A stretch of DNA of 64,000 nt from the NCBI GenBank assembly GCA_051294905.1, contig CM119372.1, positions 29,328,001 through 29,392,000 of the forward strand, given 5' to 3'. The translations under genes and the position numbers were made by a program. Below, piece by piece: positions 9,153 through 64,000 of the stretch. Position 1 is the first letter of the stretch; every line of letters starts with the position of its first letter. Source of the stretch: Botryllus schlosseri. Lineage: Eukaryota. The notes under the pieces were generated by a model. That model was not told where the DNA came from, searched no databases, and saw nothing but the letters and a program-made list of their open reading frames with translations.

Positions 9153-10836
9153 TATAGATAACTAACCTACGGATAGATGGGCAACACGTGACTCACGGTC
9201 GAGTGATGCGACAAGGGCAGATTTGTTGTCGCTTTATACCATGAAACGGGAGCGTAATTGTTAATCCCATAGATTACGACCCGAGCGCTCAAATTGAATA
9301 AAGTTTATCTTATTTGAAAGCTACAGTCTCACTGATTCTGATAATATACATTATACTTTCATCAAGACAATGGAACCACCCCGAAATAGCCTTCAAAATA
9401 TGAAAATCGGTATTGTTCTAAACAATCGCAACCACGCACGGACCGTTGTTATGGTCATTGTGCTGCGCCGTAGCAATTGTTTGGAACAATGCCGATTTTC
9501 AGACTTTGAAGGCTATTTCGGGGTGGTTCCATTCAGTGGTGCCACTCCTAGTGTTTTAACACTAGATCTAGTGTTTTTTCGGTCGTCCTAGTGTTCTAGT
9601 GTTTTTTTTCGCACAATTTTGCTAATCTAGTGTTTTTTCTGCAATTGTGCGAACAAGGAATATTCTAACTTTAGACTACTAAATTATACGATAATAAGGC
9701 GATTTGGTGTGTCTGGCTGTGTTTGTTTTCAACAATTCTATGTGATAGTGCAGTAACAAGCAATTATTACGTAACAGGGTGCGCTGTGAATCCGTACTTA
9801 TAAGCGAAAGTCTCGGAGAAAATGAGCGATTTCGCTCTAATGCTCCGTCGTTTTTGTTCAACTCACTCTGCAGATTCGGGCAAGATTTTCATTTGCCGAG
9901 GACAGTATACTTTCGTACTTGAGTGTATTGAATCCGTTAACAGCCTTGTCAACACAAAGAAAAATAAAATCAATTGTTCCTCTAGCTGTGCAGTTTTCCT
10001 CTGTGATATTATTTGATGATTTGTCGGAAGAATGGGCTGCTTTGGCAAGTTCGCAAAATGAGCTGCAGGTTATCAGTCCATGCCCTCCAACGGAATTTTG
10101 GCAAAAATTGAATTATGTGCGCAATGGATTCGGTGAATCAAAATTCCCTATAGGCTACTGGGGAAGCTCATGACGAATCTCCTGGCATTGCCACATTCCA
10201 CTGCATGCATGGTAAAGAAGTATGCTGCACGTGGACACCTCCTCATTGTTTGGTTGAAGATATACGGTAGTGAGAAAGATGCCACACAAAGATACTTATG
10301 TTTGATCGATGGTGTAAAATCGAAAGATAATTTTTATGATGCAGTACAATTCGAAAGTGACAATATTTGATTTTTTCTTACTCTGTTGAATTCGTTTCAT
10401 TTTTCGTTGAATAATCATGCAGTATATCATACATATGTATCGAATTCAAGTGTGGAATACTTCTTATCTACGGATTTGTACCTTGGTCATCATGATTACT
10501 TGGCAACGGTAAATTTTTCCTGCAATTTACTAATCTAGTGTTTTTTTCGTCAATCTAGTGTTTTTTCGCAACACAATCTTGTGTTTTTCCAGGAACCTAG
10601 AGTGGCAACACTGGTTCCATTGCCTTGATGAAAATTTAATGTATATCTCAGAATCAGTGCGACTGTAGCTTTCAAATAAGATCAACTTTATTCAATCTGA
10701 GCGCTCGGGTCGTCATCTATGGGATTAGCAATTACGCTCCCGTTTCATGCTATGAAGCGACAACAAATCTGCCGTTGTCGCATCACTCGACCGTGAGTCA
10801 CGTGTTGCCCATCTATGCGTAGGTTAGTTATCTATA
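9153..10836. mobile_element. Fold-back (almost fully palindromic) MITE of ~600 bp, interrupted by a hAT element
   Basis: 9153-~9430 pairs with 9475-9533 + 10622-10836; ends TATAGATAACTAACCTAC / GTAGGTTAGTTATCTATA. Confidence 0.85.
9534..10613 (+). mobile_element. Non-autonomous hAT element with decayed transposase C-terminus
   Basis: TIR CAGTGGTGCCACTC / GAGTGGCAACACTG; perfect TSD gttccatt; CTAGTGTTTT repeats; internal EFWQ...KFP...LLALPHSTA resembles the hAT dimerisation domain. Confidence 0.88.
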
Positions 10837-10907
10837 ATCGATCAACAATGTAATAAACTGCTTACGACGCAGAGTATCCCTTCGGGAAAATAATTGCAAG
10901 TCCCTTC

Positions 10908-11173
10908 TGTTTTTGTTGTTGTTGTTTATGATATTCATGGTGTTTCGACTACGTCTGTCATTTTACACCAAGCTGATATTCCTCACTGTGATTCCGTAAC
11001 ACCGACTTCTAGCACGGCCCAATTTCATGCTTTTTTAAAACAAGCGGATCACGTGGCGAGGACCCTAGATAAACCTCCAACACTTGTGAATGAATTCTTG
11101 AGTCGACCTCGAACCCATAGCCCATCGGTGATGCAGCTGTGGGACGTACCACTACTCGCCACGGGCAAGCCCC
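10908..11173 (-). mobile_element. tRNA-derived SINE, apparently full length
   Basis: Minus-strand head with A-box-like TGGCGAGTAGTGG and B-box-like GGTTCGAG; body shared with copies at 11683-20310 and 41245-41383; (CAA)n-like tail. Confidence 0.75.
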
Positions 11174-11775
11174 TGCTCTAGAACAACGAATATGGAATGT
11201 CTACCAACTATACGCGACTATACAAGTGCTAGAAAACTCGTTACGATGATATGCTTGTGATGTAATATTGAATACCGAGGGTCACGAGTTCATCATTTCT
11301 TCTGTCAATATGATACTTCGAACTATTTCTTCTTCAGTTTAATCCATAATCCTTGCAAAACTCATTTCATGCCATTGTCAATAATCCTTGTATAGCACTA
11401 AAAAGTTGAGTAATCGTCACATTACCAAGCAAATGAATACAACGCAATCCACTACGATTACTTTGAGTTTATTTTCAATGCAATCGGATGCGATAACGAA
11501 TACTTGACAATATTGTTATTGACGTAATAGATAATGCATTACGGATGCAATCGCGAATACTCCATGTATGGATACTGGCAATGTATTTCGGTGTTCTCAC
11601 CCAGTTACCGGTGACTGGTCGTTAGTCTCAAAAGCAAATTGAGATTCGTGCTCGATTTCGGTTAATTTCCTGCTATTTCCCCGCATACGATGGGCCTACT
11701 CCTGAATTCCTTTTAAGTGTTGGAGGTTTATCTACGCTTCTCGCCACGTGATCCGAGTAAGCGGTGTCATATAAA

Positions 11776-13523
11776 AGTAGTATAGTAGATCGCTCTGGAG
11801 GTGGCAGGGGCTCTTATGGGTGCGGCGGTGATTCGCCTGGAAACTCGTGGTGGTGACTCGCCTTTTTAGACCCCCCTCTCGGCGGTGATTCGCCATGTGT
11901 TCTTATGGGTGCGGTCGTGATTCGCCCTTTTAGGTATAGCTCGTGGCGGTGACTCGCCGTGAAAACTCGTGGTGGTGAATCGCCTTTTTTAACATAGGCC
12001 GTGGTGGTGATTCGCCTGTCATGTATTCTTACGGGGTCTCTGGTGATTCGCCATGTGTTCTTACGGGTGCGGCCGTGAATCGCCAGACGTCATAGTTCAG
12101 GCATGACAAATGACCGATATCGCATTCTCTATTCTAACTCCAAGTCTTTTCGCGCTGCGCCTTGCGGGTGACATGTCGTACTTTCAGCAAAAAAGGTATG
12201 AAATAGTTTGCTAAATCTAGGAGTCACTCGGAAGGTAATATTTTGGTACTTAGTTTACCACAGAGCCGGCGTAGACGGCGATTCGAATATCAACAATAGC
12301 CGCGTTCACATACTAAAACTTCAAAAAGGTGTGAAATATTTGTAATATCCTAAGAACGCTCACAAGATACCACATCAGACAGCCATCTCTCGTGGTTTGG
12401 TGTTACAGAGGCAGGAATCACGCACAAGTAATATTTTGGTAATTAGTTTGTCACAGAGCAGGCGTAGACGGTGATTCCAATACCAACAATAACCGCGTTC
12501 ACATACTAACACTCCAAACAGGTATGAAATATATTACAAACCCCACGATCGCTCACAAGATAACACCTAAGACATAACCATTTCTCGCGTCTTTTTTGAC
12601 ACTTGCACGCGATCGCTATATGTTTTGACACTTCGGAACAGTCGTTGACTTTAGTTGCGTGATACAAATCATGAGAATCCTTTTAACGCGTTTCTGTTGA
12701 ATCGAACGTAACCTGAATATTACTGACGCCAACATCAGCCGCATCGAATTATTCACACATTCCACGCCGTCGTTTTCACACCTATAGAATCAATACCAAC
12801 TAGCTCAATGAGAATCAAGATACAAGTATGCACATACAATCATTGTATTTATTACTGAGAAATCAAACGCTTAACAAAAAACACGCAACTAATCATTTGT
12901 CAACTCTAGCATTACCAAAAAATTCAGGTATTGTGGATTAAAAATCCTTGAGTCCTGGTCATCAAAAATGTTATAGTGCGGTGTCGGAATCCATTCGCAG
13001 GATGTACTAAAGGTAAATTCAGATAATCCAAAATGAAATATCTCGACTTTGACATAGTCTGAATTGAAATAGATTGACAAACATAACTACCAACTTTCAC
13101 CCAGTCACATTTCGAGATTATACGCACATTGATTTGAAACAAGTAATGAAACATTACAACTCTATTCGCGCTCCGGCTTTCCGTTTGCCAAAGAGACATT
13201 TTAACATCTTACCATACTCAAAAGAATTATTCACAACATTAACCGGTGTTAAAAATCTAGTTTTTACTTACTTGACTATATCACTACAACTCGCAAACTT
13301 GAATTAATTCATCCTGATTGTATTCATATGACCGATAATTTTTATTCGAATGTAAAAGTCGTTACTAATCTATAACACAAAGTAATCACTACTCGGTGCA
13401 TACGACGAGATTTGAATACTCAGTCTATGATAGCAATTCGCGCAAGTGAATCCAAGACATCGGGCTGTGAGAAAATCTTCACGGGCGTTGTTATTACCAC
13501 ATTGACTTACTACCTTATCCGAC
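11776..13523 (+). repeat. Left terminal inverted repeat (1748 bp)
   Basis: Reverse complement of 18008-19730 apart from about six substitutions seen by eye and one 25-bp indel. Confidence 0.95.
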
Positions 13524-14388
13524 GTTTCGATTTTATTATTGGAGGTACTCATAGCCGTGCGAATAACCATGTTACGGCTCCGTGTTTGTGTGTCTGTATG
13601 TCATGCTTCAGATTAAATTTACAGACTCAGAATCATTGGATTGTGTCTTATTGGTATGACATTGTTATCGGGGCGGGTGCTTGATGACATTCGATCTGCA
13701 TCAAAATTACCGGCTATGATAATGTCTGTGGATCGAAGGCTTACTCCCCGATGTTTGTATACCAACACATTGCATGCAATGTCACACACCTCCATTTACG
13801 CGTATACTTGTGTGGGCAAACAAGCGCGACGTATGTGTGGATGGTATTTTTTCGTGGAAACACAGGGTGTAACATGTTTACTTGAATATTGGTCGTTGGG
13901 TCATGAGTGAATACCCGGATCCGATCACACACACACTTTCTTATGCTCATCCGGTTTCAGCTGACTGGAGCGACATGTATTGACCAATACAGACACAATA
14001 TAGTAAACACGCGGGAGAAAACTCAAGCCGAATTGTTAGCGCGGTGGGTGACATAAATTCAGCCGTTTTCCGAACACCGTTATCCACGTACTAACCATCG
14101 TCGAGGAGGTGTTTTATTCAGACATTTTGACTCTGGAAAATCCAAAGCACGAACCCAGACATCACAGACATGTCGAAACCTATTGTCCAATTTTCAAAAC
14201 ATACACGTCGATGTACAACAGCACATTGCATGTGGGTAACTGAGGATTTTGATGGGATGCACCAGAACAAGTGAATATGCGATTACACAAATGTATTGGA
14301 GTCGTTGTTGGTGTATATTTTGTCGCTGCCCGTTGCAACAATATACAAAAATATCAAATTGTCCGGTGTGGTTGTCAGTTTGCAAAAC

Positions 14389-15040
14389 GAAAATGGTATT
14401 GTTACCCAGGGTAAAGATAGATTTCCAAGTGAGAACGGTATTGGTACTCGGGTAAATGATAGTTTTCCAAACGAAAAGGGTTTGTTACCCAGGGAGAAAA
14501 TATATTTCTAAAAGAAAATGATTAGTTACTCTAGGTAAAAGTATTTTTCCAAGTGAAAATGGTTTGTTGTGGTAGGAAAAAAAATAAATTTGCAAACGAC
14601 AAGGGTTTTGTTACTCTAGGAAAGGATAGAACCCAAAGTGAAAATGTTTTGTTACTCTGGGTAAACGATAGATCTCCAAAGGAAAGTGATGGTTTTACTC
14701 AGGTAAACGACGGACCGCCAAGTGAAAATGGTTTGTTGCTCAGGGAAAAAATATATTTCCAAGTGAAAATGGTTTGTTGCTGAGATAAAAAAATATATTT
14801 CCAAGTGAAAATGGTTTTGTTACTCGGGTAACGCTAGACCCCCAAGGAAAAATGTATTGTTACTCCGGGTAAACGATAGCTCCCAAAGTGACAATGTATT
14901 GTTACTCTGAGTAAACGATAAATCTCCAAAGAACAATGGTATTTTTACTCAGGTAACGGTTGACCTCCAAGTGAAAATGGTAATTTTACACAGGTAAACG
15001 TCAGTTGTCCAAACGAAAATGATATTTTTACTTGGGTAGG
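14389..15040 (+). repeat. Diverged ~42-bp minisatellite, ~16 units
   Basis: Unit approx. GAAAATGGTTTTGTTACTCNGGTAAACGATAGNTNTCCAAGT, repeated head-to-tail with units of about 40-43 bp. Confidence 0.9.
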
Positions 15041-18007
15041 TATCGTATGTTCAGTGTCATTGATGTTGTTAAACGTTTTCACTTGACGTCGGTATCTCGT
15101 TAGCGTAATATTACGAGTATGAAAATGATTTACACATCTTGTGCAGAGTATCGCAACAGTAACGATATTTTTCGCGTGAAGAACCAAGATCGTTGTTTAA
15201 ATGTTAGTGCATGCATTTCGATTACCGAGTTGCTGTACAATAGAGATGACTCTACATTAGACCACGCTGTGTGCTTCGATTAAAACCACAAGACCACATG
15301 TAAATCTATTCGCATAACTCGATGATGTTGATATAGTGTTACTAAAATTTATTATTACCTATTTACACAACATAAAAATAACTATTCATGTCGTAGTAAG
15401 TAAGTTTCTTGAGCTCGTGCTTGATGAAAACGAATGGTGACAAGTATGCGTTTGTGTTTTGAGTGAAAAATAATTATTCAGAGTAGTGACAGTTTGTGAC
15501 CAACGAATGCAAATCGATCATGGTATTACAATATACGCTTTCGTCAACATAACGACTTGGTGCAGGAGAAACACTTTAAAGTTTTTTTCAATAACTCGAT
15601 CCTCAAGACTTGTTACTTGTACGATGTACCGTTGGTGTGCAAACTATAACGACCATTTCGTATCATAGTATGTTTTTAACTTGTATTGTTGTGAGGACAA
15701 TCATATGATGACTCAGCACTTTTCGTTAGCGAAGTAAATTGTTTTGCGTGTTAGATTTGTGGAAAGTAAGTCGAAAACATACTCTTTTGTGGAAGTAACT
15801 GTACTACTGTGATACCATTGGTAGGTCTCTCAAGCAGTCACCGTGGTTTTAATTTTGAAAGATGTCGCGATGTCGGTATAATATTTTCTAAAAGTCAAAC
15901 TCGGACGGATATCATGACTGTGTAGGACTTACGATAAACATTATACTCATACAACTTTGTTACAAGAACTATGATATTTCTGTAAGTACTTTAGTTGTGT
16001 GTTGGGTTATTTGAATATTTAGATGCGTGACCAATGACCATTCATGTCAAAAACACTTGCGACGTCAAAACAGTTTGTAGAGTCTAACTAAGCATTCTTT
16101 ACTTTGAAAGCGTAGGCAATCATTCTTCAGTTTCGTAGTACCAAAAATATCGAGTTAAGGTCGAGTACTTTGTGTGATGTAAATATCTTTCATACTTTTG
16201 TATGAGTCGCGGGGATGATCATTCGTATCCTACAAAGCAACTAGTTGATACTACAAAATATTGAATGACCGCTAACAACCTCAGTTCATAACCCAAGATA
16301 GCGAAACTTGTTTACTGTTAGACTAACATAATTCGTATCCAGTAAAACGATAGACACCAAAGGCTCGATGGAGTTTAAATCTAGATTGTATTAAGCGAAG
16401 TGATGAGTACCTCAAATAATAAAATCGAAACGTCCAAACAAATTTCTGCGTCTTGGTTGTTGTAAATAGCTATTTGGTATGATATTAGTTATGGGTGTGT
16501 GACAATTCGTATCTGTCGAGGTTGAATGTTTAACCGTATCGAAATGAATCCAGAACACATAAAGTATACATTGATCACAATAGAATCGATGAGAATGTTA
16601 ACCACATAGAGTGTCTGTGTATGGAAGTCATTTCCAACACGGTTACTTCGATCGGTATTAATTCCATGTCATACAAAAACATGAAACCTTTGTACAGTTT
16701 CGTAGTATGGAATATCGAGTGAAGTTGATTATTTTTGTGTGACGAAAATATCTCGTATTGATATTGGACACTGGTTTCATTACCCAAGTGAGTAAAAATT
16801 ATTTTCTGATGGACAGATATGATTTGTATTTAGAAAAAACGACCCACATCGACTAGGTGACACTGTTTAATATCCAATGAGTGAGTGAAATTTCTTAGGG
16901 GTTTGATTTATCGAGTTAACTGCCAGCGATTCAATCGCATCCAAGTTACGTATTTTAATGGCCGAGTATTGTAACGACATTTACTTTGACGAATGATAAT
17001 GGGAAAATTTCCAATTTCTCTGATCGTGTGCGTTACACAAATAGTTCTGGTACGCATTCAGTGAAGATCATACAACTTGACAACAATTTTCATTTGTTTG
17101 GTTAGATGATGACAATTATTCTGGAGGTTCAAATCGATATCACTACTATGAACAGCAATACAAACACATTTTTTGTAGATTTCAGTGTAGCACATACTTC
17201 GATTTTATTATTGTTATGGGTTTTGTTTTAACCAAGACCGGTTGAATAGAATCCATCCAGTAATGATACCTCTATTCACTTTTTTGATGATCAAAGTCTT
17301 AGAGTGTGACCTTGTAATGTTTTACATTTCACACGTTCGATAGAGAGTGTAAACAGAGCTTACCACACTTAAAATGGTACTCCGATATCCAAAGTGATAT
17401 TTTCATACTGCTTAATGTGCGTATGTTTCAATTCGATATGTCGCAGATTCCGACAATAGGTTTTGTGTGGGTTGTTCGATATGTCACTGCAAGCGATTCC
17501 TGAACTTCGCTCCCGCAGTTAAAATGAGGATCGAGTGTGCGTGTACCTTTAGGTTGACAGCTCTACTAGAGTCTAATACGTCTGTGTACATCGATCGTGA
17601 TTGTGTTTGGTAGATTCACGAATCGAGATGATGATAACGCTGTTGAATAAAAATCTTAAAAAAACACGAGTTGAAGACGAATGATTTGTTTTTTAATAAA
17701 CTAAAAAGTACTTTTGTTTTGGTATTGGACTTGTGTTCTGATATTGATAGATGTGTTGAGTAATATGGCCAGTTTATAAAAATATCGGTAATATTTTTTG
17801 GTACCTTAAGTCGGGTAATCAATTATAAAATCGCGGTAATGTTTCTTGCGTGTGCACGTTGTCATCAAATTAATACGAATACATTTTACTGAGGGAATAA
17901 AAAACACAGGTCTGAGATATGTGAATACGACCGAGATTGATTAATATAGTTTACAGTTGTAATGATTGTGTATATTACTGAAATCGTGTCTACTTTACTT
18001 TGTGTAA

Positions 18008-19730
18008 GTCGGATAAGGTAGTAAGTCAATGTGGTAATAACAACGCCCGTGAAGATTTTCTCACAGCCCGATGTCTTGGATTCACTTGCGCGAATTGCTA
18101 TCATAGACTGAGTATTCAAATCTCGTCGTATGCACCGAGTAGTGATTACTTTGTGTTATAGATTAGTAACGACTTTTACATTCGAATAAAAATTATCGGT
18201 CATATGAATACAATCAGGATGAATTAATTCAAGTTTGCGAGTTGTAGTGATATAGTCAAGTAAGTAAAAACTAGATTTTTAACACCGGTTAATGTTGTGA
18301 ATAATTCTTTTGAGTATGGTAAGATGTTAAAATGTCTCTTTGGCAAACGGAAAGCCGGAGCGCGAATAGAGTTGTAATGTTTCATTACTTGTTTCAAATC
18401 AATGTGCGTATAATCTCGAAATGTGACTGGGTGAAAGTTGGTAGTTATGTTTGTCAATCTATTTCAATTCAGACTATGTCAAAGTCGAGATATTTCATTT
18501 TGGATTATCTGAATTTACCTTTAGTACATCCTGCGAATGGATTCCGACACCGCACTATAACATTTTTGATGATAAGGACTCAAGGATTTTTAATCCACAA
18601 TACCTGAATTTTTTGGTAATGCTAGAGTTGACAAATGATTAGTTGCGTGTTTTTTGTTAAGCGTTTGATTTCTCAGTAATAAATACAATGATTGTATGTG
18701 CATACTTGTATCTTGATTCTCATTGAGCTAGTTGGTATTGATTCTATAGGTGTGAAAACGACGGCGTGGAATGTGTGAATAATTCGATGCGGCTGATGTT
18801 GGCGTCAGTAATATTCAGGTTACGTTCGATTCAACAGAAACGCGTTAAAAGGATTCTCATGATTTGTATCACGCAACTAAAGTCAACGACTGTTCCGAAG
18901 TGTCAAAACATATAGCGATCGCGTGCAAGTGTCAAAAAAGACGCGAGAAATGGTTATGTCTTAGGTGTTATCTTGTGAGCGATCGTGGGGTTTGTAATAT
19001 ATTTCATACCTGTTTGGAGTGTTAGTATGTGAACGCGGTTATTGTTGGTATTGGAATCACCGTCTACGCCTGCTCTGTGACAAACTAATTACCAAAATAT
19101 TACTTGTGCGTGATTCCTGCCTCTGTAACACCAAACCACGAGAGATGGCTGTCTGATGTGGTATCTTGTGAGCGTTCTTAGGATATTACAAATATTTCAC
19201 AACTTTTTGAAGTTTTAGTATGTGAACGCGTCTACGCTGGCTCTGTGGTAAACTAAGTACCAAAATATTACCTTCCGAGTGACTCCTAGATTTAGCAAAC
19301 TATTTCACACCTTTTTTGCTGAAAGTACGACATGTCACCCGCAAGGTGCAGCGCGAAAAGACTTGGAGTTAGAATAGAGAATGCGATATCGGTCATTTGT
19401 CATGCCTGAACTATGACGTCTGGCGATTCACGGCCGCACCCGTAAGAACACATGGCGAATCACCAGAGACCCCGTAAGAATACATGACAGGCGAATCACC
19501 ACCACGGCCTATGTTAAAAAAGGCGATTCACCACCACGAGTTTTCACGGCGAGTCACCGCCACGAGCTATACCTAAAAGGGCGAATCACGACCGCACCCA
19601 TAAGAACACATGGCGAATCACCGCCGAGAGGGGGGTCTAAAAAGGCGAGTCACCACCACGAGTTTCCAGGCGAATCACCGCCGCACCCATAAGAGCCCCT
19701 GCCACCTCCAGAGCGATCTACTATACTACT
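18008..19730 (-). repeat. Right terminal inverted repeat (1723 bp)
   Basis: Mirror of 11776-13523; lacks gcgattcgaatatcaacaatagccg (25 bp) present in the left copy. Confidence 0.95.
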
Positions 19731-19821
19731 TATAAAAGCCCAGGAGTGGGCCGTGCTACAAGTCGGTAAATAGGGAATTAAAAATTAAAATAGTATTGGC
19801 CTGGTTTAAAATGACCAATGG

Positions 19822-20262
19822 TAGGGTCACCATATTTTAAGACCCGAGAAAAATGACAGTTTTAAAAAATCATGAAAGCCCTAAGAAAACTGGTGATTTT
19901 GAGAATTTCTCGATCAATAGTAGTGTGTCGACCAAAATGAAAAAAAAGGTTCATCACTTTGACTCGAATCCCGAATGATCCGTATTTTGCGTTATTTTTG
20001 TGGTGTTGACCAAAAGAAAAGTAATCATTCCCATCTACACTCCCGAAATACCCGTCGCGCCGTATTTTTTGTTGATTGTCCTGTCAACATTGTCGTTCGC
20101 TGTGTCGGAGTCGAGGTTCTGATCGCATTTAATTACTTTTTTTTTTTATAAAAAGACGACAAATTTTCAAAAATAGAGGACATTTAGGCGTTCTCGGAGG
20201 ACACTTTCAATTTATTGAAAAAGAGGACAAATCCTCTTGAAAGAAGACATATGGTAACCCTA
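19822..20262. mobile_element. hAT MITE inserted in the SINE
   Basis: TIR TAGGGTCACCATA / TATGGTAACCCTA; TSD accaatgg/accaatgt; AGGACA subterminal repeats. Confidence 0.85.
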
Positions 20263-21838
20263 ACCAATGTAGCCGAAACACCATGAATATCAAACAAACA
20301 AACAAACCAAAGAATGGACGTACTATGATCGGGTATACTGCGGGGGCTTCCTAACTGTCCTAGACAGACCGCGTATCCAGACTGAAACAACGTTAGACTG
20401 ATTAGGGCAAACAGTACGTGTCTAGTAGTTAACTTTAGAACTATGGATGTTTTTTTATACCTTATAGCTGCGTGTTTTTAGCAACAATTTTAATTTTTAT
20501 TATTACTCACCATTATAATATGGAGCTTCATATTAACATGGCATACTCTCCACAAGAATTGGAATTGAACCTTGATTCAAGTGATTGAGCTGAATATGAA
20601 AAAACTACAAAATCAGAACTATGCAACTGCTAGAATAACTACGCCCTTAATTTGAGCTTGTCGTTTTTGGGAATACAATAGTTCTAAGTCTAATCTAATT
20701 TGGAAAAAAATTGTGTTGCCGTAATTCTAATCCTAATCTAAGTTGAAAAACACTGTGTAGCTGTAATTCTAATTCTATTATCATTCCAAAAAGCTGAAAA
20801 TTTTCTAGTTCCATGTTTTCGCACATCGCATATCCATGCACGAAAACATACCAAGGAAATTTTGTAAGCCTACTTGAATAACGCCGTGCCATCATATTCT
20901 ATTTAACCACGATTTACGATCTGAATGGCCTCACCTCGTTCAGACTCCTTTTAGTGTAGGGATTGAGATGCGCCTTTTACGTCCCTGGATAAGAATATAT
21001 ATTTGGAGTCTGGATGCGTGTCTAAACAATTCATTGTGAAGCGCGTCGTTATGCTTGGCTCAATGGGAACGAGCATATGGAGATTATCGTGCCAACAAAG
21101 GAAAGGCAATTTATCTTCCTATTTATTTATTTTTACTGCTAATGCCAACACTGTGCGATAGTATTGTCACAATGACGTAGCGGGCCGAATCCAACGTAAT
21201 GCACCATTCTGATGTCGCGAGGATGTGAATTGCTCCAGGAGAAATTGAAGGCATAGCAGTGGTGCCTTTTGTCCCGCAGGCGACGTCATTAATAACAAGT
21301 TTCATGAATGATTCCGAAAGGTTATGTACTAATACCGTGAGTGCTAATTCCGAGAATGCACATCATCGAGAATGTATATTACCTAGCATGGCATTACCGA
21401 GAAAGGAACGACCGAGAATGGACATTACCGAAAAGGACGCTACCGAGAATGACGTCTATACGTCAGATTTGACGCCGAATGTACACACATATGGTTTCGG
21501 TAATCTCAACATCTGTGGTTCCCTAAATTTCAACTTACTGTCAATATCTGGGCCATGGTCATAGGCGTCGTATGCTAATTTTCCGTAGGTGCGCGGGTTC
21601 ATAAACGTCACAAAGGTATGACGTCATGTGGTATAATTAATAAACACCCTAACTGCAAAATATCTACTATTATAGCACCTCGTGAGCGTTTATATCGCCA
21701 ATTACTTAGTGGCTTGTATATGATGACAAAATTACCATACTATCAAGCAGGCGCGTATGGCGTATCCAGCCGAAAAATGAGGAGTTGGAAAAACGTGGCA
21801 GGTCTGAAAATTTTACAAATTTAAATAAAAAAAGCCTT

Positions 21839-26286: not shown

Positions 26287-28823
26287 CAGACATGGGGTGA
26301 TTACTTCACGGATGTAATCGATTGCGATTACGATTACTTGTGATTCCCACGATTACGATTACGATTACGATTACAGCAAAATCAGGAAGTAGTCGATTAC
26401 GATTACGATTACATTTCAAAAGTAATCACGATTACTCACGATTACATTTGTTTTGCTTCTTAAAACTAATTTCAGAAGAGATATTGGAAGACAATATAAG
26501 GCTTGCGATGAAAAGGTCTAATGAGATAACAACTTTACTTATAAATTATACGTCATTTGCTTGTTACGTCATAATGCACCCATTGCCTAACTCTATACAG
26601 GATTATTCGTCGCACCCAACGATTTGCATTCTTGCCAGGTCCGTAACTGCCACACCCCAAACTCCCCAATAGGACCGGGAGCGAGCTCTAAGGGGACTTA
26701 AAAGTATTTCGTAGATCAACATAAATTGTTATAGAGTATTTTCAAGACAGTTAATTAACTTGAAAATTTTCTTCGAGCTTCGGGATTTATTGTCTCTAAA
26801 TAGCTTGATTTTGAAATGCATACCTCTCCCTCTCAAGAAAAAAAGCAAGCATAATTTATAGGAATAGACATTTCGTGGGCGGTCATTACCCCACCACGAC
26901 ACACCGAAAGACGTATGCAATTTCGGCCAACATGCAACTCCACAAAGTGTGCTACCATAGAATGACCTTTGTGCCAAAACTTTGGGTATGTGTCCATTGT
27001 CAGTAGCCGCGCTCTGTGGTCGTGACGAATAGTCCGGTCCTTCCAATCTGAGCCCCAACAATGCAAATGCCACCCGGGGCACTCACAGAGGAATAAAGAC
27101 ATGACAATTTGTGTGTGCGTCCCACGAAAGTTTTTTTATTAGTCTGCTGCGTTTGGGTGACTACAGTATCTTTTGATTATATAAAAGGCGGGCGGTCACT
27201 AATTAACAACATTCAATGAAGTAATTATAACAACATACTAGATGCTATAATTATGAATTACGTGCCCCAGCTCTACCGGTAAATCTGAACGAATAGCAAC
27301 ATGATGCAATTACCAATATTATTGACGAAATTCAGTTATCAACTTGAAAACTGACCACCCTATGGGGCCCCAATACCAGGGGTTGTAATGACTCGAGTCG
27401 CCACATTTTGGTGACTAGACTTGACTCGAGTCATTTTTTCAAATGCGTAAATAGACTCGACTCGAGTCCATTTTTGTATTGACTCGACTTGCACTCGAGT
27501 CATTTTGTATGACTCGAGAATAGAACGGCCAAGACAGACATTTCATGTAACTTCGAAGAATAGTAAAGTTACCACATTATTTGTATTTCGTCTATCAGTC
27601 CTGATACTTGGAAATAGGGCCGTAAACTGTGAAAACTGATGAAAATTACTACATGATGAATACGAGCCATTCTATATCACTCGAGCAGAGTTGAAAAAAG
27701 TGGGTTGAACCGGATTGACATGAAAACTAATCTGTGAACATAACGACTTGGACTCGTAGGCCTACTCGAGTCAAACACTATGACTGGGACTCGTCCCTAT
27801 ACTAGCTGGCTTGGACTCAGACTTGACTCGGGGGTGAATTGAAAATGACTCGACTTGACTCGAGTCAAAACTATAAAAGTGAGATTGACGTGTTACTTGG
27901 CACATTGTGACTTGGTTACAACCCTACCAATACTAACGTTGGGAGTGGGCGACGAATTGCTGCTTTGGTCCTGATTGTGCCTACTACCCACGCTAACATG
28001 GTGTATAAGCGGATGGCTATGGCGAAGGTGTAAATGTCGAGTGAAGAATTGTGACATAACGATTGGCGCCCGTTTCATGTAGAGTCATATGAGAATAAGA
28101 TAAAGTGAGCTTAAAATTCTTACACTTCAAACCGATACTGAAAGCTGCCGTTACGAGAAACAGCAAAGAACCGCTCGGTTATGATATATATCAGCAGCTG
28201 GTGATTTTAACTATCGTAATGTTTTATTTGACGAGTACAAAATTTCAAATCTTTGTCCGGTGTACGTACAATACATACGTATACTACATAGATAGGCCTA
28301 CTGCTCGCCAAGCATCAACGGTCAAACTGCGTTCAACTGAGAATAAGTTACTATTTGAAACTAGGCAGAGTGGTGATTATTATCTTGCTGCGAGGTAGTG
28401 GCGTCTTGAGTGTATTGATAACCTGATATACAGCATGGCTTACACTCTTCTAACAATCACACAACAATGTACAGCGAATATATATTTACTACATGTGGAT
28501 ACTTCTTACGCAAGGACGAGCAAGGCTAATACTTCTGACGTAATAATGAGCAGTGGCGTTTGAAAATCAACCGTTTGCGCTATCCATAACCTGGTATAAC
28601 ATCTCTTCCTTGTTCACGAATATTCGGTCATGTCATACTCATTGTGCAAATAAAAAGTAATCGTTCTTTCACTAATAAATCGATTAGATATGTGAAGTAG
28701 TCGATTACGATTACGATTACTTTGGATTTTTTTCGAATGTAATCGATTGCGATTACGATTACTTGAAAATGCTGTAATCGTCGTAATCGATTACGATTAC
28801 TAATCACGATTACCCCATGTCTG
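26287..28823. mobile_element. Non-autonomous hAT element (CGATTA-repeat family)
   Basis: TIR CAGACATGGGGT / ACCCCATGTCTG; perfect TSD actcagaa; CGATTA arrays at both ends. Confidence 0.9.
27378..27926. mobile_element. Nested hAT MITE (GACTCGAGTC family)
   Basis: GGGTTGTAA / TTACAACCCT ends; TSD ccaatac(c/t); same family as 42219-42819. Confidence 0.8.
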
Positions 28824-34126: not shown

Positions 34127-36885
34127 CTGAATATTTGACCTATTGGACTCATCTGACCGACCGGTGTAGGACGCCCTGAGCCCTCTCACGGTTCATACAC
34201 TTTGTAAGATACAACATCATTATAGTACATCGCACATATCTGTATATCACGTGACTTATATCTTTCTTCTCGCTACCACGTGACTTACCATTTATCAGCT
34301 CGTGCATTTCAATTACAAACCAGACTCATCTGCGATATCCTACTGTATATTCCATGCATATTCGACCAATATATCTATCTGAGGCAATCCTGTCGTTGCA
34401 TTCACGTTGAAGTTGTCAGATCAAGGACTTAACGCAGGAACGTGCGTCTTACTACCCACGAGCTAAGTATATCCACCCAGCCACACATTACGTGGGACTC
34501 AGGTTACAACTCTAGCAGGTTATCAGACGACACATCCTTCTGCACCGGTAAGCTCCGTAGCTAGTTTTAGTCACGCCGAAACCATCCCATAAATCGCTTA
34601 TACGATTCTTAACCGGTCATCACTAAGGTCTTGATCGAACAAATATGTGAGCTATTTTCAATGAAAAGTCGTATTTTTCATGATTCCAAGACTTATTTGC
34701 CTAGCGGACTCGGATTCTTGGTTATTGCGAGACTGTACCCTGATTTGCATATATTCGTGGCATTTGCACCCATTTTCAATTTTCCTGCTTCTTTGAAATG
34801 AACTACAAGGCGATAAGATTTGAAGTTGGGTTTTATTGCTATATATTTCGAAATGAACCCGGGATTGAGATTTGAAAATGCATTCCAATCTCAAAATCGG
34901 CATAGGATATGAGCTAAGAAGGTAATTAGGAATGAATGATTGAATTGACTGTGGCTGCGGATCTAACCGTACAGGTTCGTGTATACAAATGAATTATAAG
35001 ATAAGTTCGAAGTGTGTACAAACGTATATTTCATGTGTTATTTTAACAACCAATTTTCGCCCAAATATACTTATAGATTTACCTGTTATGTTAATAAAGG
35101 TGACATATCCTCTCGACGGGCTGAAAATGTCATTGGCGGCGGAGCATTTATACTTCGCAGAGTCTTCCAGGGTGGCGCTTTTGATGATTAGTGTTGCCTT
35201 CCCTGGCTCAATTTTTTGAAGAGGTTCTTTCCAAATATTGTCCGTGGGTACGCCGTCCTGTCTCTGCCATTTGACGTTGACAGTCGAAACTCCAGATCCA
35301 GTACATTCGATCTCAATCGTATCTCCGACTGTGTAATCCTTTCTACTGTTCGACAGAGCGAGAGGGAAAACTGCGTGTAATTGAGAACAATATGTTAAGC
35401 AGCGTCATAAAACTAAATAGGTATATGTGATTGGCCGAGAGAAACCATCGATACTGGTAATCGGCGTGTGTATCACAGAACTTCCAATTTTTCAAAACCA
35501 GACTTGTTGAAGTATTCAGATATATTTTGTCGTCATGACATACTTGCTTACTAACGAAGCTCGCATATCACTTCAACATATATACTAGAGTCTAGACCAG
35601 TGGTTCTCAACGTTGGCGATATTGACCCCAGGGGGCGATTTAGCAGTCTAGGGGGGCGAAAATAACGAAGGGGGCGATAAGGGCGATAGCGCGTTAAGAC
35701 GGCTATATTGGAGTCGGGACCGTAACAACCACACCCCAAAATTAGGGGCAAAAATTATATCGTGAATTAACAAAAATTGTAGTGTAATTTTTCAGAAATT
35801 CATACAATTTTTTCCAAAGATTTTTGCGCTGCGCGCGATTTTATAAATTCATATATCTTGACTTTGTGGTACCCGTCCCCCAACAAAAATACGCATGATT
35901 TATGGAAATGGGAGACTTCGGGGTCAGCCATTACTACGCCACGACGCACCAAGACATATGAAGTTAGAGGTCATGTAACATGCGACTCCGAGAAGTGTGC
36001 CAGAACGATCAGCAGCGAGAAGACCTTGGCCGAAAAGGAATGCCCTTGTGCTGACCGAAAACTAAGATATGTATACTTATACATATATGTTTAATTGTCC
36101 ATATGTGCCTCAATGGCTGGCATCGAATGTTCCTGTCCTAGCGACCTTAACCCTACAGGACAAATGCCATCCCGCAAAGAAAAAAATATTTACCAGTTAA
36201 GAAATACCAATTTGAAATCATGTGCGTCTCTTAGTTTGTTACGTTTTTGACGATTTCCATACCTGCTGATATAGCAGATATAGGAGGTCACGAGATAGCA
36301 TCATGTAACGAAGTCAATATAACAACGATTCCGCCGCTGGTTGCTAGTTGATTTGACCAATAGATAACAATGAATTTTGATGTGAAATTTATTCATATGC
36401 ACAAATTTGAACATTCTACCAGAGTTGGAATCACGACGGCTGGTAAACTGAATTCAGATTTGCAGTAGGCCAAGGAGTTTCTGGTTATTCTAAATATTCA
36501 TGTGAAATCCAAGTATATATTCAGTCACATATCAGATTTAGACTTGTATTAGGAAATGATATGAAACAAACAAACTCAAATTTTTACATTAGGTTCGAAT
36601 CCATGGATCAAATGCGAAGCACGATGGATATGTGAAAATATTGAAGAAACTCATGTATGGCGACAAGGCTTGGCGGGGTTGATATAGGAAATTGAGAGTT
36701 AGTATAATGCTCGTGCCTGCACGAGTAAACATGTCTAAAGTAATCATCTCCTACCATCTTCACACACGTAACTCGTCGATCCTTCGCAGTTGTCGGCGTT
36801 TAAGCAGTTATGCGTTCCATCTACCCAGTAGCCGACCTTGGAATTCCTAAAATTAAATCGAAAGTCATGCAGTCATGAATAATAA

Positions 36886-39900: not shown

Positions 39901-42900
39901 GGAACTAACAATCCAATCACACAGTGGATTCAGTGTGTTGATGATTAAGTTTCGCGACGTTAGTGAACAGCGAACGGCCCCAATGTATACAATGGTTTCA
40001 CGATCTGCCAAGGCCGTAACTGCCGTGCCCAAAACCCTCAATTGAGGGGAGATCGAAGGGGCCCAAAATTATTTCGTTGGTCTTTTGTCGGAAAATATTT
40101 AGTCAACATTAAAAATTTTGTCGCGCTTCTCGCGATTTCATGTCACTAGTGGTATAGATTTATATGACTAGTAAGAGAAAAGGTACGTATTTTGAAGAAA
40201 TAGATTTATTGGCGCAGGCGATTATCAACGCATCAAACAGAACTATTATATGAGGCGGGCCTTAGAACAATTTCAAACCGGGAAATGGGCCACGGCCAGA
40301 AAGGGGTTGAAAACCACTGAACTGAACTCGTAGCTTCATATGTTTTGTTTTCTTTTATGTCCACTATCTATCTTATATGAAACCGTAGAACTCACACTTT
40401 GGTGGCGAGATAGCGCCAGAGGTGGTCTGTAACGAAGCACTTCTACTTATTTGAAGTACTCAAGTAGTTTTCCTCTACTGCTGGTACTTACTCGAATAGA
40501 TTTCATTTTCGCTATATTCACTTCTACTTCGTAATATTCTGTGATCTACTTACTTACTTTTCGATATTTTCAGTTTGTCAAGTAGAAGTAGTTTAATCTT
40601 ACAATTAGGAGGATAGCCTGAGGAATTTCGAGACTGTTTTTCTGGAGTATTCAACTGTCATAGAAGTGGAGTAAAGCCCAGAATTTTCGTCGTGCTTCGC
40701 GCTCAGTTGATACAGAGTAACCATTATGATTTCACGAAAGTATAAAATATATAATTTATATATTATAAGTAGTGGGTTGGCGTGGTTCCTTTCACACTTC
40801 ATTATCGCCCACGCTCACATGGAATATTTAATGACAGTATATATGGCTCATCATAACGTTTGTAACTCATGTTTCGAAATCTAGCATTAATTTATCATAT
40901 CGTAATTCAGCAGTCTATAGCGTGTCCTAATCTGGAAAAGTAGACTCTGACTTTTTTTAGTTTTAGAGTTTTTAATCATACCACCTCAACACCTTCGAAA
41001 CATTCTTCTAGACTTAAGACACGAAATGCATATAACGTTTTTAGAAGTAGTATATATATTTCACTTTCAATTCTCAGTATCATTGACTTCGGGTTCTAAT
41101 TAATATCAGTTCTTTTGTCTGGAGAACATACATGTTGAAGTATAAAAGCAAGTGTAGTAATGCCTTTATTTCCGAAAATAAAGTTAAATATGACATTTTT
41201 ACGATCCACGATCCACGATCCACGATCCACCATCCACACATCCACGTAAGCGGTGTCTTACAAAAAGCCTCAAAGTTGGCCGCGCTACAAGTCGGCAGAT
41301 ACCGATACAAAAATCAAAAAATCGGCCTGGGGTTAAATGACCATTGTAGTCGACAAACACCATGAATACCCCAAACAAACACACTTTATGTTGCAAATTA
41401 TCATACCTACATGTAAAAAGTAGTTAGATCTATCATAATTCACAATAATATCTACCAAATCCAATAGCCATGGCGAGATATAAAAATTATTGAACTGATC
41501 GTGTTGATTTGTTCTACTATTGCGAATTAATGAAAGTGGTTACTTTTCGGGCTGCTACCACCTCTACTGCTTTACGTTCATATTTCACGCTCTAGGATTG
41601 TTGAGTATGAAATATAACTTATTGCGTCATTTCCAGCAAATCGTTTCGTATCGGGCGAATATTATTCACCTTGAAAGCAAATGAAGGGTTGCTCACGCCC
41701 GCAGTCAATATCATTCCACGTGTTGAATGGCCACTCTAAGGCAGCGCAATCTTCCTTTCTATGGTTATCCGGCTGACTCGGTCCCCTGCAAATTAGAACA
41801 TCGCTAACATCATTTTGTTGATATGTAGTAGTCATTTTGAGGGATCTGAGAATATGGATAAAGATGTACTTAAAATGAGATACTTGCGACGCCACACTTG
41901 GATGGAATAGGACCCTCGTAGGGAAAACAATACGTATTACCACGCAGCGTACTGGTAGGTTATACAGCTGCAACACCTATGTGTAGCTTTTTCGACTTCG
42001 GCCGCGTTCGACTCCAGAACTTTTCGCTCAATGTTGGAGGTGTGAATGAACATAAATAGCAAAAACAACCACTTCAAAATGGTACTTCTAGAAGCTACAA
42101 CATGTTTCACTACCGGCGCATGCCGTCAGAATGTTTTACCAGCTTGCACCCAACGAGTTTGGAAATCCTCGCTTTTCGTTTTCACTGTTCGTTTGGTTTT
42201 GATTACCAAACTCCCAAGCAGGGTTGTAATGACTCGAGTCATGACTCGACTCGAGTCCGACTCGACTCACGTTTTTCAGATGAGTCGACTTGACTCGAGT
42301 CATTTTCTCAAATTACAGAAATGACTCGAATCGACTCGAGTCAATTTGTGTATTGACTCGACTTGGACTCGAGTCATTGCGCATGACTCGAACCAAGTCA
42401 TATGACTCGAGACTCAGAAGACCAAGACCGACGTTTCATTGTAATTTCGAGGAATAGTAAAGCAATGACACTATTGGGATTTCGTCTATTGGTGTTGGTA
42501 CTTGAAAATGCGCCCAGAAACTGCTAAAATGACGGAAATTAGTATATTATAAATGCGAACCATTCGATATCACTTAACAGAGTTACAAAAAGTGGATTTA
42601 ACAAGCCTTTAACTGGAAACTCGGCAGTCAACACAATGACTTTGACTCGACTCGAGTCATAATACCATGACTCGGACTCGACCCTCAGCTCGGTGACTTG
42701 AACTCGGACTTGACTCGGTGGTGGTGGTGAATTGAAAATGACTCGACTTGACTCGAGTCAAAACTATAAAACTGACATTGACTTGTGACTCCGAGCATTG
42801 TGACTTGGTTACAACCCTGCTCCCAAGTAAGACTGCAGATGTTACTACGACATAGACTCTGGTATTTTAGAGTCCTTTTTCGCCGGACAATCGAGACATC

Positions 42901-62106: not shown

Positions 62107-62566
62107 GTGATGTCTCTTGTGAAGTCTCCAACGGATTCCCGCAAGTCTCCAACCCTAGCACCGACTTGGAAGTCATTAGCTAAGATGACGGTCGACGATT
62201 TACGATCCGAATTACAAGATCTTGGCGAAACTACAAGTGGGAGCAAGACGGTATTAACGGGGCGATTAAGGAAAATCCGTGATTTGACCAAGCTTTCACA
62301 GAAGACCGAGCAGAAGTCCTCCTCTCCAGCTACCACTGAGAGTCCCTCTGATCTGCTCATGCTTTTCCAGATGATGAAGCATCAGCAGGATCTCGATCGT
62401 CAGCAGCAGCAATTAGATCGTGATGCTGATCGCCAGCAGCAGCAATTAGATCGGGAAGCTGCCAATCGCAAGTTTCAGTTGCAGCTCGAAGAGCTCAGGC
62501 AGAGACAGGTGCTGGATCGTGAGGAAGCCGAAAGAATACAGTCGCAAGTTCGTGATGAAAGCGAAA
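62107..62566 (+). pseudogene. Truncated retroelement gag-like ORF with N-terminal SAP-like domain and Q/E/R coiled coil
   Basis: MTVDDLRSELQDLGETTSGSKTVLTGRL fits the SAP motif; lies 160 bp downstream of an LTR 3' end (61900-61950); beyond 62566 the ORF reads into an antisense LTR. Confidence 0.65.
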
Positions 62567-62965
62567 GACGCGGCACTGAAATCAATGAGTGGCGCTTTAC
62601 CAGGTGTCGGGATCCTGTCTGCTGCACACTAAATCTGGCAATGGGTACTAGCAAGCGTTGTGTATCTCAAATCTCTTCTGTTTCAAATACAAGCAGTCCA
62701 GAACATACAATACGGAATAGCTTGTTCAGAATATAGTTAAATGGCGAGTTTCACAAGATTGCTTGCTCGTCCGATATAGAAGTCGATTGGCGAGAAATGA
62801 AACAGGAACCGTGAGACATGAAGAAAACCGAGAACGGACGCCGCGACAATTAAATTAACCAATCAAATTAAACAACAATCAATCGATTAGACGTAAAGAC
62901 CGACGTGAAAACCGACTAGCCGCGAAATGCTTGTCGCCGAAATATCCGATTCCCGCGTCGCAATA
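62567..62965 (-). repeat. 3' LTR of the BEL/Pao element (last ~6 bp missing)
   Basis: Follows PPT AAGGGGGGGAGGA (62966-62978, -); starts TATTGCGACGCGG, nearly complementary to the LTR end CCGCGTCGGAACA seen at 61938-61950. Confidence 0.75.
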
Positions 62966-62990
62966 TCCTCCCCCCCTTGACCGACAGTAG

Positions 62991-64000
62991 TCAGTCAACA
63001 GGTTCCAACAGATGAATTTTCTGAATGGGACGAGTCAATATACTTTTTGCCGTTTTCAACTTGAGCGTCCTTACAAGGCCATCTTTGCCTTCAATCGTAT
63101 CGATGACTCGTGCCGTGAGCCAACTCGGTCTATTTAGCCCGTCTTCTGCAATAAGGCAAACATCTCCTATCTTCGGGGCTCGTTGCTGAATGTTCCACTT
63201 GTTTCGTCGAAGCAGCGAAGGGAGATACTCCTTGCTCCACCTTGTCCAAAAGTGTTTGAGCAGTGTCTGCAGATATCGGAACCGCTTCGTAATGTTGGCG
63301 CGTGTAGGCAAGTACGGTAGTTGACCGAGCGGACGTCCAATGCAGAGATGAGCCGGCGTAATAGCCTGCGGATTCCGGGAGTCGGCTCCCAAATAGGTCA
63401 GCGGTCTTTGATTGAGTGCGCATTCGATGTCTGTAAGTACGGTATACATTTCAACGTAGGTTAGACTGGCCTTACCCAATATCTTCCGGAGCGGCTCTTT
63501 GAGGGAGCGATTCATTCTCTCGTAGAACGCTCCGCGATGGGGCGCACGCTCTACTATGTACTTCCAGTGAATACCATTGTCGGTCATGAACTTCTGCAAT
63601 TTTTCGTTATCAGCAGTACCTTTGAATAGCGCACGGATGGATAGTCTGATGATCTTCTCAGCCTTCTTGAAGGTTTTCTGGTTGTCGCTGATTATCTCTC
63701 TGCACCAACCTCTTCGGTTCATCATGCGTCTCAATGCAGCTAAGAACTCTTCAGTTGACATACTGTTCGTTAATTCAAAATGAACCATCCTACTGTGGGG
63801 ACAGGTAAACAGACAGATGTACGCCTTCTGCATAGTTTTGGTACCAGTGTCGATATAAACGGGACCCGTGAAATCAAGACCCACTTCTGAAAATGCAGGA
63901 GCTACACAAATTCTTTCTGGGGGCAGTATTCCCATTTTCTGGGTCAAGGGTTTCGTGCGCCAATGTCGACATGTGATACATTTACGTAGGGCTCGCCTAA
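62991..64000 (-). mobile_element. BEL/Pao LTR retrotransposon pol C-terminus (integrase), continuing beyond the window
   Basis: Open frame with CITC zinc motif, GLDFTGP / ISDN / FYERM DDE core and the BEL-type C-terminal FWTRWSKEYL...RNKW...GKDGLVRT...TRPIQKI. Confidence 0.95.

Follow-up and report, generated by a model that had tools for sequence, protein, structure and literature searches.

A 7,955 bp insertion at positions 11776–19730 of a 64,000-nucleotide stretch of Botryllus schlosseri DNA (assembly GCA_051294905.1, contig CM119372.1, positions 29,328,001–29,392,000 of the forward strand; hereafter the window, in which all coordinates are given) is likely a truncated copy from an abundant family of gene-less fold-back elements with long arms and Polinton ends, rather than a separate 8-kb satellite whose core is its own. 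As a gene-less insertion with Polinton ends and a 6-bp target site duplication (TSD), it is real and probably recent. Its ends, TSD and arms, the lack of detectable genes, the high depth of matching sequence, the variants shared by its two arms and a short mirror island next to the left arm are all established. The explanation that we prefer, and to which we give slightly better than an even chance, is that a longer Polinton-ended fold-back element, presumably dependent on a helper, was first inserted and then suffered a deletion of the greater part of its left arm.

Ends, target site and arms

The element boundaries drawn in the preliminary description proved exact to the base. The element begins with AGTAGT, ends with ACTACT and stands between two copies of TATAAA on the + strand (11770–11775 and 19731–19736), a flank match with a chance probability of about 3e-4. 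The match is exactly 6 bp long, since extension to 7 bp fails. The TATAAA duplication is real: joined over a single TATAAA, the two flanks align without a break, at about 75 % identity, to each of two older repeats of the window that are paralogous to this site (41240–41346 and 11103–11001). The termini and exact 6-bp TSD first proposed are thus verified, the TSD by this second route as well.

The left arm lies at 11776–13523 (+ strand, 1748 bp, opening with the (AGT)2 end motif) and the still-paired part of the right arm at 18008–19730 (− strand, 1723 bp, ending in ACTACT). The two arms jointly make up 43.6 % of the element and enclose a stretch of 4,484 bp. They differ by six substituted bases (four single and one dinucleotide, at 12159, 12198, 12268, 12329 and 12957–8) and by one gap, the right arm being without 25 bp, so that their identity is 99.65 %; the recomputed values agree with the six or so substitutions, single indel and 44 % share of the element first reported. 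Five of the six difference events fall within 171 bp (12159–12329; clustering p ~0.002), in or just before a duplication with 193-bp spacing that is found in each arm and consists of two direct repeats of about 175 bp, 81 % alike (12219–12587, + strand). A conversion tract from another copy of the family is a possible source of this cluster. The outer arm is GC-rich (55 %) and holds seven quasi-palindromic GGTGA(A/C/T)TCGCC motifs (11827–12052, + strand), seven in each arm and none in the core or the remaining window, which are candidate binding sites for a helper protein. The host DNA, with a CpG observed/expected ratio of 1.10, appears to lack CpG depletion. The arm motifs and arm duplication are additions to the preliminary description, as are the mirror island (13524–13552) and the tandem array (14385–15032) considered below.

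Abundance, concerted arms and coding capacity

Three public contig runs (X1, X5 and X11) and one RNA run, out of 24 listed runs, were mapped on 11000–18007, with two flank bins (11234–11701) as the depth baseline; the flank bin 11000–11233, itself a repeat, was excluded. All 27 element bins lie above the flank, by 31–3,719-fold in X1, 19–5,015-fold in X5 and 16–1,832-fold in X11, and the mapped contigs are mostly 90–99 % alike. Summed contig depth is not copy number, and we limit our wording to an excess of hundreds- to thousands-fold for most bins. The element matches a very abundant repeat family, and the expectation that it would prove multi-copy is upheld by a depth, not a count, 16- to 5,015-fold above the flank across the three runs. 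Depth dips at 13340–13573 and at 17318–18007. The first of these bins contains the last 184 bp of the left arm, the mirror of which adjoins 18007; about 870 bp spanning the boundary of right arm and core behave as one rarer segment, which fits continuity there. Across 15914–18007 depth falls stepwise, from about 2,000-fold to 300–600-fold and then to 20–90-fold over the flank, a pattern that suggests mosaic subfamilies with different inner arms. Among viral contigs the terminal 18-mer was not found, and a subterminal 16-mer occurred at 27 viral loci, none with meaningful extension; the terminal 20-mer had two matches in metagenomes, neither of which extends.

The arms evolve together. The variant rows viewed were 40 of 556 (and the contig pieces 24 of 96,861); 13 of these 40 rows fall in the arm, and at 11 of the 13 both arms share a letter against the family majority, position 12317 being an example at which 157,745 of a depth of 158,028 in X1 carries the other letter. 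At the remaining two sites (12957–8) the right arm has the majority letter. Since both arms share minority letters, one must have served as template for the other at some time after this lineage separated from most of the family. Cut-and-paste transposition would not produce such a pattern; gene conversion in place would, and so would the replication by way of a folded single strand that has been proposed for Polintons (PMC4196379). Homogenisation also bears on the age of the element, which had been called young. The perfect TSD and the 99.65 % arm identity make a recent event plausible; however, the arm identity is a clock that has been reset, and what it dates is the last resetting (probably the insertion event) rather than the family as a whole.

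The stretch between the arms has no stop-to-stop frame above 97 amino acids (aa), and across the arm boundary the longest is 102 aa, a length reached in 91 % of 200 Markov simulations (simulated mean 128 aa) and so no longer than chance; the core was rightly described as having neither an open reading frame (ORF) over about 100 aa nor recognisable genes. Under genetic code tables 4 and 6 the longest frames, 226 and 276 aa, were reached by 16.5 % and 54 % of 200 Markov simulations, respectively. Six-frame searches with X at stops gave no significant match in Pfam (11776–18008; best E 0.11) or in PHROGs (12100–18008; best E 0.41), and neither a protein-primed polymerase (PolB), a retroviral-like integrase, a capsid, a packaging ATPase nor a protease was detected with these general profiles, which are not Polinton-specific and which old, frameshifted gene remnants could escape. 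An integrase ORF elsewhere in the window served as positive control and was detected by Pfam at E 3.7e-7. Rfam returned no match over 11000–20500 at E up to 1. A composition scan placed its top segments in a 42-bp array within the core, with marginal scores of 11.8 and 9.0 (null 95th percentile 10.1 and maximum 16.5; controls 16–25).

Of the 17 Met-start ORFs of at least 45 aa in the putative spacer (13553–14384), two were searched individually: for the one at 13656–13907 the homologue search found none, and for the one at 13795–13622 the Atlas gave a blank, which carries no weight. The read-through of 14170–14508 matched three of 1.84 billion proteins, all of them singleton gene calls on ENA contigs of 0.9–1.9 kb that represent three further copies of 14044–14500. 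These calls differ in frame over ~14290–14380: one of them, P0004 (161 aa, from another copy of 14044–14750), is open across the border of spacer and array, and the two others lie in another frame. We consider it likelier that all three are spurious predictions on further copies of this DNA, with a small gene in some copies a possibility. P0004 had no match in viral contigs, and folding of 13500–14420 gave a z of −1.3. A single bulk RNA run, of which about 6 % was examined, gave 206 reads of 12.9 million, 99 % of which continue into other sequence; no start or end site of a discrete transcript was found in that one library, which is weak evidence.

Inner anatomy and the origin of the 8-kb form

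The preliminary description took arms of 1.75 kb and a core of 4.5 kb to be native features of the element, which they are likely not: the left junction appears derived, a mirror island adjoins it, and the strand skew of most of the core is like that of the right arm. The sequence at 13521–13552 (+ strand) is the reverse complement of 16403–16434 (− strand, the mirror source) at 31 of 32 positions (E 3.8e-8). The first three bases of this match, GAC, also close the left arm and constitute a 3-bp microhomology, and the 29 bp that follow the arm (13524–13552) mirror 16431–16403 at 28 of 29 positions, for which the chance probability, given this fixed position, is about 5e-12. In 300 simulated cores exact inverted matches were up to 22 bp long, so that the exact run alone is unexceptional; the significance of the island comes from its position at the arm end together with the 28/29 match. 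Read inwards, the left side consists of the mirror of 19730–18008, a jump at GAC that omits 1,576 bp present in the right arm, the 29-bp island and a second junction into 13553. Because the island mirrors 16431–16403 directly beyond the left arm, the mirror symmetry likely once extended over at least 3.3 kb (3,328 bp), and the left junction is likely a derived double break. Contigs of the X1 run diverge from this copy at both places: one with nine differences tracks 13376–13523 and then has 52 unlike letters, and 22 with other letters before 13567 (loose ends) support the second junction. A 15–16-bp motif contained in the island also occurs in inverted arrangement at 16414–16429 and 17198–17213, with weak duplications nearby (16128–16347 and 16695–16838).

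Most of the core is likely the inner right arm (14385–18007), now unpaired. It carries G skew both in a degenerate 41/42-bp tandem array (14385–15032; 15.5 copies, 70 % matches; z 3.4) and in the remainder (15033–18007; z 3.8), as does the paired inner part of the right arm (+3.2), with the left inner arm at −3.1. The 832 bp at 13553–14384, in which no gene was found, are unskewed and GC-richer (43 %) and may be what is left of an old central spacer; in X11 their depth is 230–246-fold over the flank versus 456–1,659-fold in the arms. If this segment is indeed the spacer, the arms would have measured 5.3 kb and the parent element at least ~11.5 kb.

Our working hypothesis is that a protein-primed polymerase supplied by a helper would recognise the AGTAGT ends, perhaps aided by the seven quasi-palindromic motifs of each arm, and that the displaced single strand would fold back so that both arms are rewritten from one template. 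Such single-template rewriting would explain the minority letters that the arms share. A retroviral-type integrase of the helper would then insert the copy and generate the 6-bp duplication. A later break in the left arm would have been repaired by two jumps, the first skipping 1,576 bp at the 3-bp microhomology, with the 29-bp island left between them. Repair of a break after insertion is favoured on two grounds: it is at the junctions that contigs of the family part from this copy, and one-sided deletions are common at palindromic junctions, being the usual fate of such junctions in transgenes (PMC8701086). Several points weigh against this hypothesis. Spacers stabilise palindromes (PMC8701086, PMC7999016), for which reason a 0.8-kb spacer weakens the case for a cruciform-driven cause. 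Spacer depth is clearly below that of the arms in X11 only, and in X1 it amounts to 2,141–3,274-fold versus 650–3,020-fold in the arms. No complete palindromic parent came to light, since what the island demonstrates is no more than 3.3 kb of former symmetry, and with 24 of 96,861 contig pieces viewed, more copies of the 8-kb junction could exist.

An unlikely alternative that nevertheless deserves serious consideration places the same two jumps earlier: a helper polymerase working on the free form of the same long-armed family would have switched template twice, and the resulting asymmetric snap-back genome, inserted at 8 kb, may still be mobile. Template jumps on the free form predict the same sequence as break repair after insertion. 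In its favour, neither the ends nor any of the subterminal motifs are damaged, the junctions are those expected of a nascent strand that starts at the right end and jumps twice, and symmetric as well as asymmetric snapback genomes occur in adeno-associated virus (AAV) vector preparations (PMC10924063); however, no listed contig spans the left junction, and it is there that family contigs diverge from this copy. A bolder version, which we consider rather doubtful, is that defective polintovirus genomes of the snap-back kind, with arms rewritten in lockstep at each replication, are integrated in the germ line by the hundreds to thousands. The 8-kb copy would then be an asymmetric snap-back that arose when the helper polymerase switched template twice, before its integration.

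Another alternative, close to the preliminary description, is an internally deleted, non-autonomous Polinton with native 1.75-kb terminal inverted repeats (TIRs) and a unique core, in which the island would be a templated insertion from 16.4 kb made in an unrelated repair. We consider such an element improbable, because the island directly adjoins the end of the arm, keeps the mirror order and has GAC in common, the strand skew of the core is one-sided and the six-frame searches gave no remnant of a Polinton gene. In its favour, no second mirror match longer than 12 bp was found between 13553–14400 and the rest of the core, and butterfly Polintons have TIRs of ~2 kb and polB-less derivatives that apparently stayed mobile (bioRxiv 10.1101/2025.02.07.637071).

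Long, internally repetitive arms are also known from Galileo (PMC3573991), but we attach very little probability to a cut-and-paste fold-back transposon of the FB/Galileo/MULE type that merely resembles a Polinton, since the exact (AGT)2//(ACT)2 motif and the 6-bp TSD match Mavericks and the minority letters common to both arms fit replicative resetting better. The TSDs of Galileo, FB and MULE are 7–9 bp long, in contrast to the 6 bp observed here. Equally far-fetched is an assembly artefact, be it a collapsed full palindrome or an inverted repeat made from fold-back reads, given a TSD that brackets the element, flanks that read on as a single host repeat, arms that differ at six bases and a 25-bp gap, an X5 contig that matches 11562–11804 with no differences (although its overlap with the element is only 29 letters, fewer than the 31-letter bar of the mapping) and the fact that assemblers do not usually collapse repeats into a 3-bp microhomology plus a 29-bp island; on the other side stand the trouble that long palindromes cause in nanopore sequencing (PMC8701086) and the lack of any read seen across the whole locus.

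As regards the surroundings, the insertion has interrupted an arm of another, older element with inverted repeats, in which 11045–11103 mirrors 11698–11755 and 10900–11042 mirrors parts of 19734–20319, and which has a paralogue near 41240–41384. The empty target (11770–11775 joined to 19737–19740) resembles a TATA box, TATAAAAG, with sequence richer in GC after it, a likeness probably due to chance, as the paralogues differ there. Over about 188 bases of the flank (11404–11591), X5 contains two haplotypes with 5 and 13 differences from the window, i.e. allelic divergence is high compared with the 0.35 % between the arms. Further away, the region 62107–63998, which the end of the window truncates, holds the intact control integrase ORF (335 aa, rve + DUF5641), part of what we take to be a BEL/Pao element, and on the opposite strand an ORF of 209 aa. 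A 1.7-kb element at 9153–10836 has inverted ends of 189 bp that are 95 % complementary; many GACTCGAGTC-rich repeats at 27390–48124, direct and inverted, likely form a family of miniature inverted-repeat transposable elements; and a frame at 34997–35404 that looks by eye like an immunoglobulin-domain exon found no match in a homologue search.

Significance and comparison with known systems

Replication of Polintons through a folded single strand is a proposal with little direct support (PMC4196379), and a gene-less family whose kilobase-long arms share minority letters is what this model predicts; the shared letters supply natural markers with which to test it. Since Polintons typically have far fewer copies than the depth here would imply, a very active helper is suggested, and free forms could be looked for in this organism. 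The surprising and testable part is the architecture of the family with its lockstep arms, the copy itself being mainly a broken example, a stage of decay or a by-product, which warns of a trap in annotation: an apparent 1.75-kb TIR with a unique core can be a broken giant hairpin. If instead the 8-kb form arose as an asymmetric snap-back, it would be a direct fossil of a fold-back replication intermediate that has so far only been proposed for Polintons.

The element shares with Polintons/Mavericks its long TIRs, its end motif, which in Mavericks is (AGT)2//(ACT)2 or (AG)3//(CT)3, and its 6-bp TSD (PMC8097293). It differs from them in length, at 7,955 bp against 12.7–24.6 kb in a vertebrate and a nematode survey (PMC8097293, PMC10748475), in arms of 1,748 and 1,723 bp, likely once at least 3,328 bp, against ~100–1,500 bp, and in a depth that exceeds the flank hundreds- to thousands-fold, where the anole has fewer than 10 copies (PMC3014272). 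The general profiles detected none of the polymerase, integrase, ATPase, protease and capsid genes in it. On the grounds of size and genes it is not an autonomous Polinton; Polinton ends and TSD combined with no coding capacity and high depth are the marks of a non-autonomous Polinton derivative, as which it would be classed. The non-autonomous Polintons of Repbase (the zebrafish and sea-anemone 'N' families) have kept their ends and lost genes, and are presumed to be mobilised in trans. One of these families, Polinton-N1A_NV, retains a capsid gene (PMC11296320). The length of the TIRs, which had been thought unusual, is not so by itself, as vertebrate Maverick TIRs range from 46 to 1,447 bp (mean 402; PMC8097293) and those of butterfly Polintons reach ~2 kb, a length similar to that seen here, in a group with helper-dependent polB-less derivatives that are apparently mobile; however, the butterfly TIRs carry hexon and protease genes, and other genes are kept (bioRxiv 10.1101/2025.02.07.637071), whereas our element codes for nothing detectable.

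In its presumed mode of working the element resembles AAV snapback genomes (PMC10924063) and the defective interfering genomes of RNA viruses (PMC6140465), in which one end is copied back, genes are lost and a helper is needed. Unlike these, it is double-stranded DNA integrated in the germ line with a TSD and an end of the protein-primed type, and it is known from sequence, not from a particle or from interference. Palindromic transgene junctions likewise undergo one-sided deletion that breaks a long inverted-repeat symmetry, but mostly lose little and have spacer-less centres, whereas this element misses kilobases and probably had a spacer (PMC8701086). The open literature, taken without Repbase and supplements and in the parts available to us, yielded no description of fold-back, palindromic, snap-back or satellite Polintons or of fold-back arms on the kilobase scale. 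A TIR of 1.75 kb is unremarkable on its own; gene-less arms of more than 3.3 kb at such abundance are remarkable.

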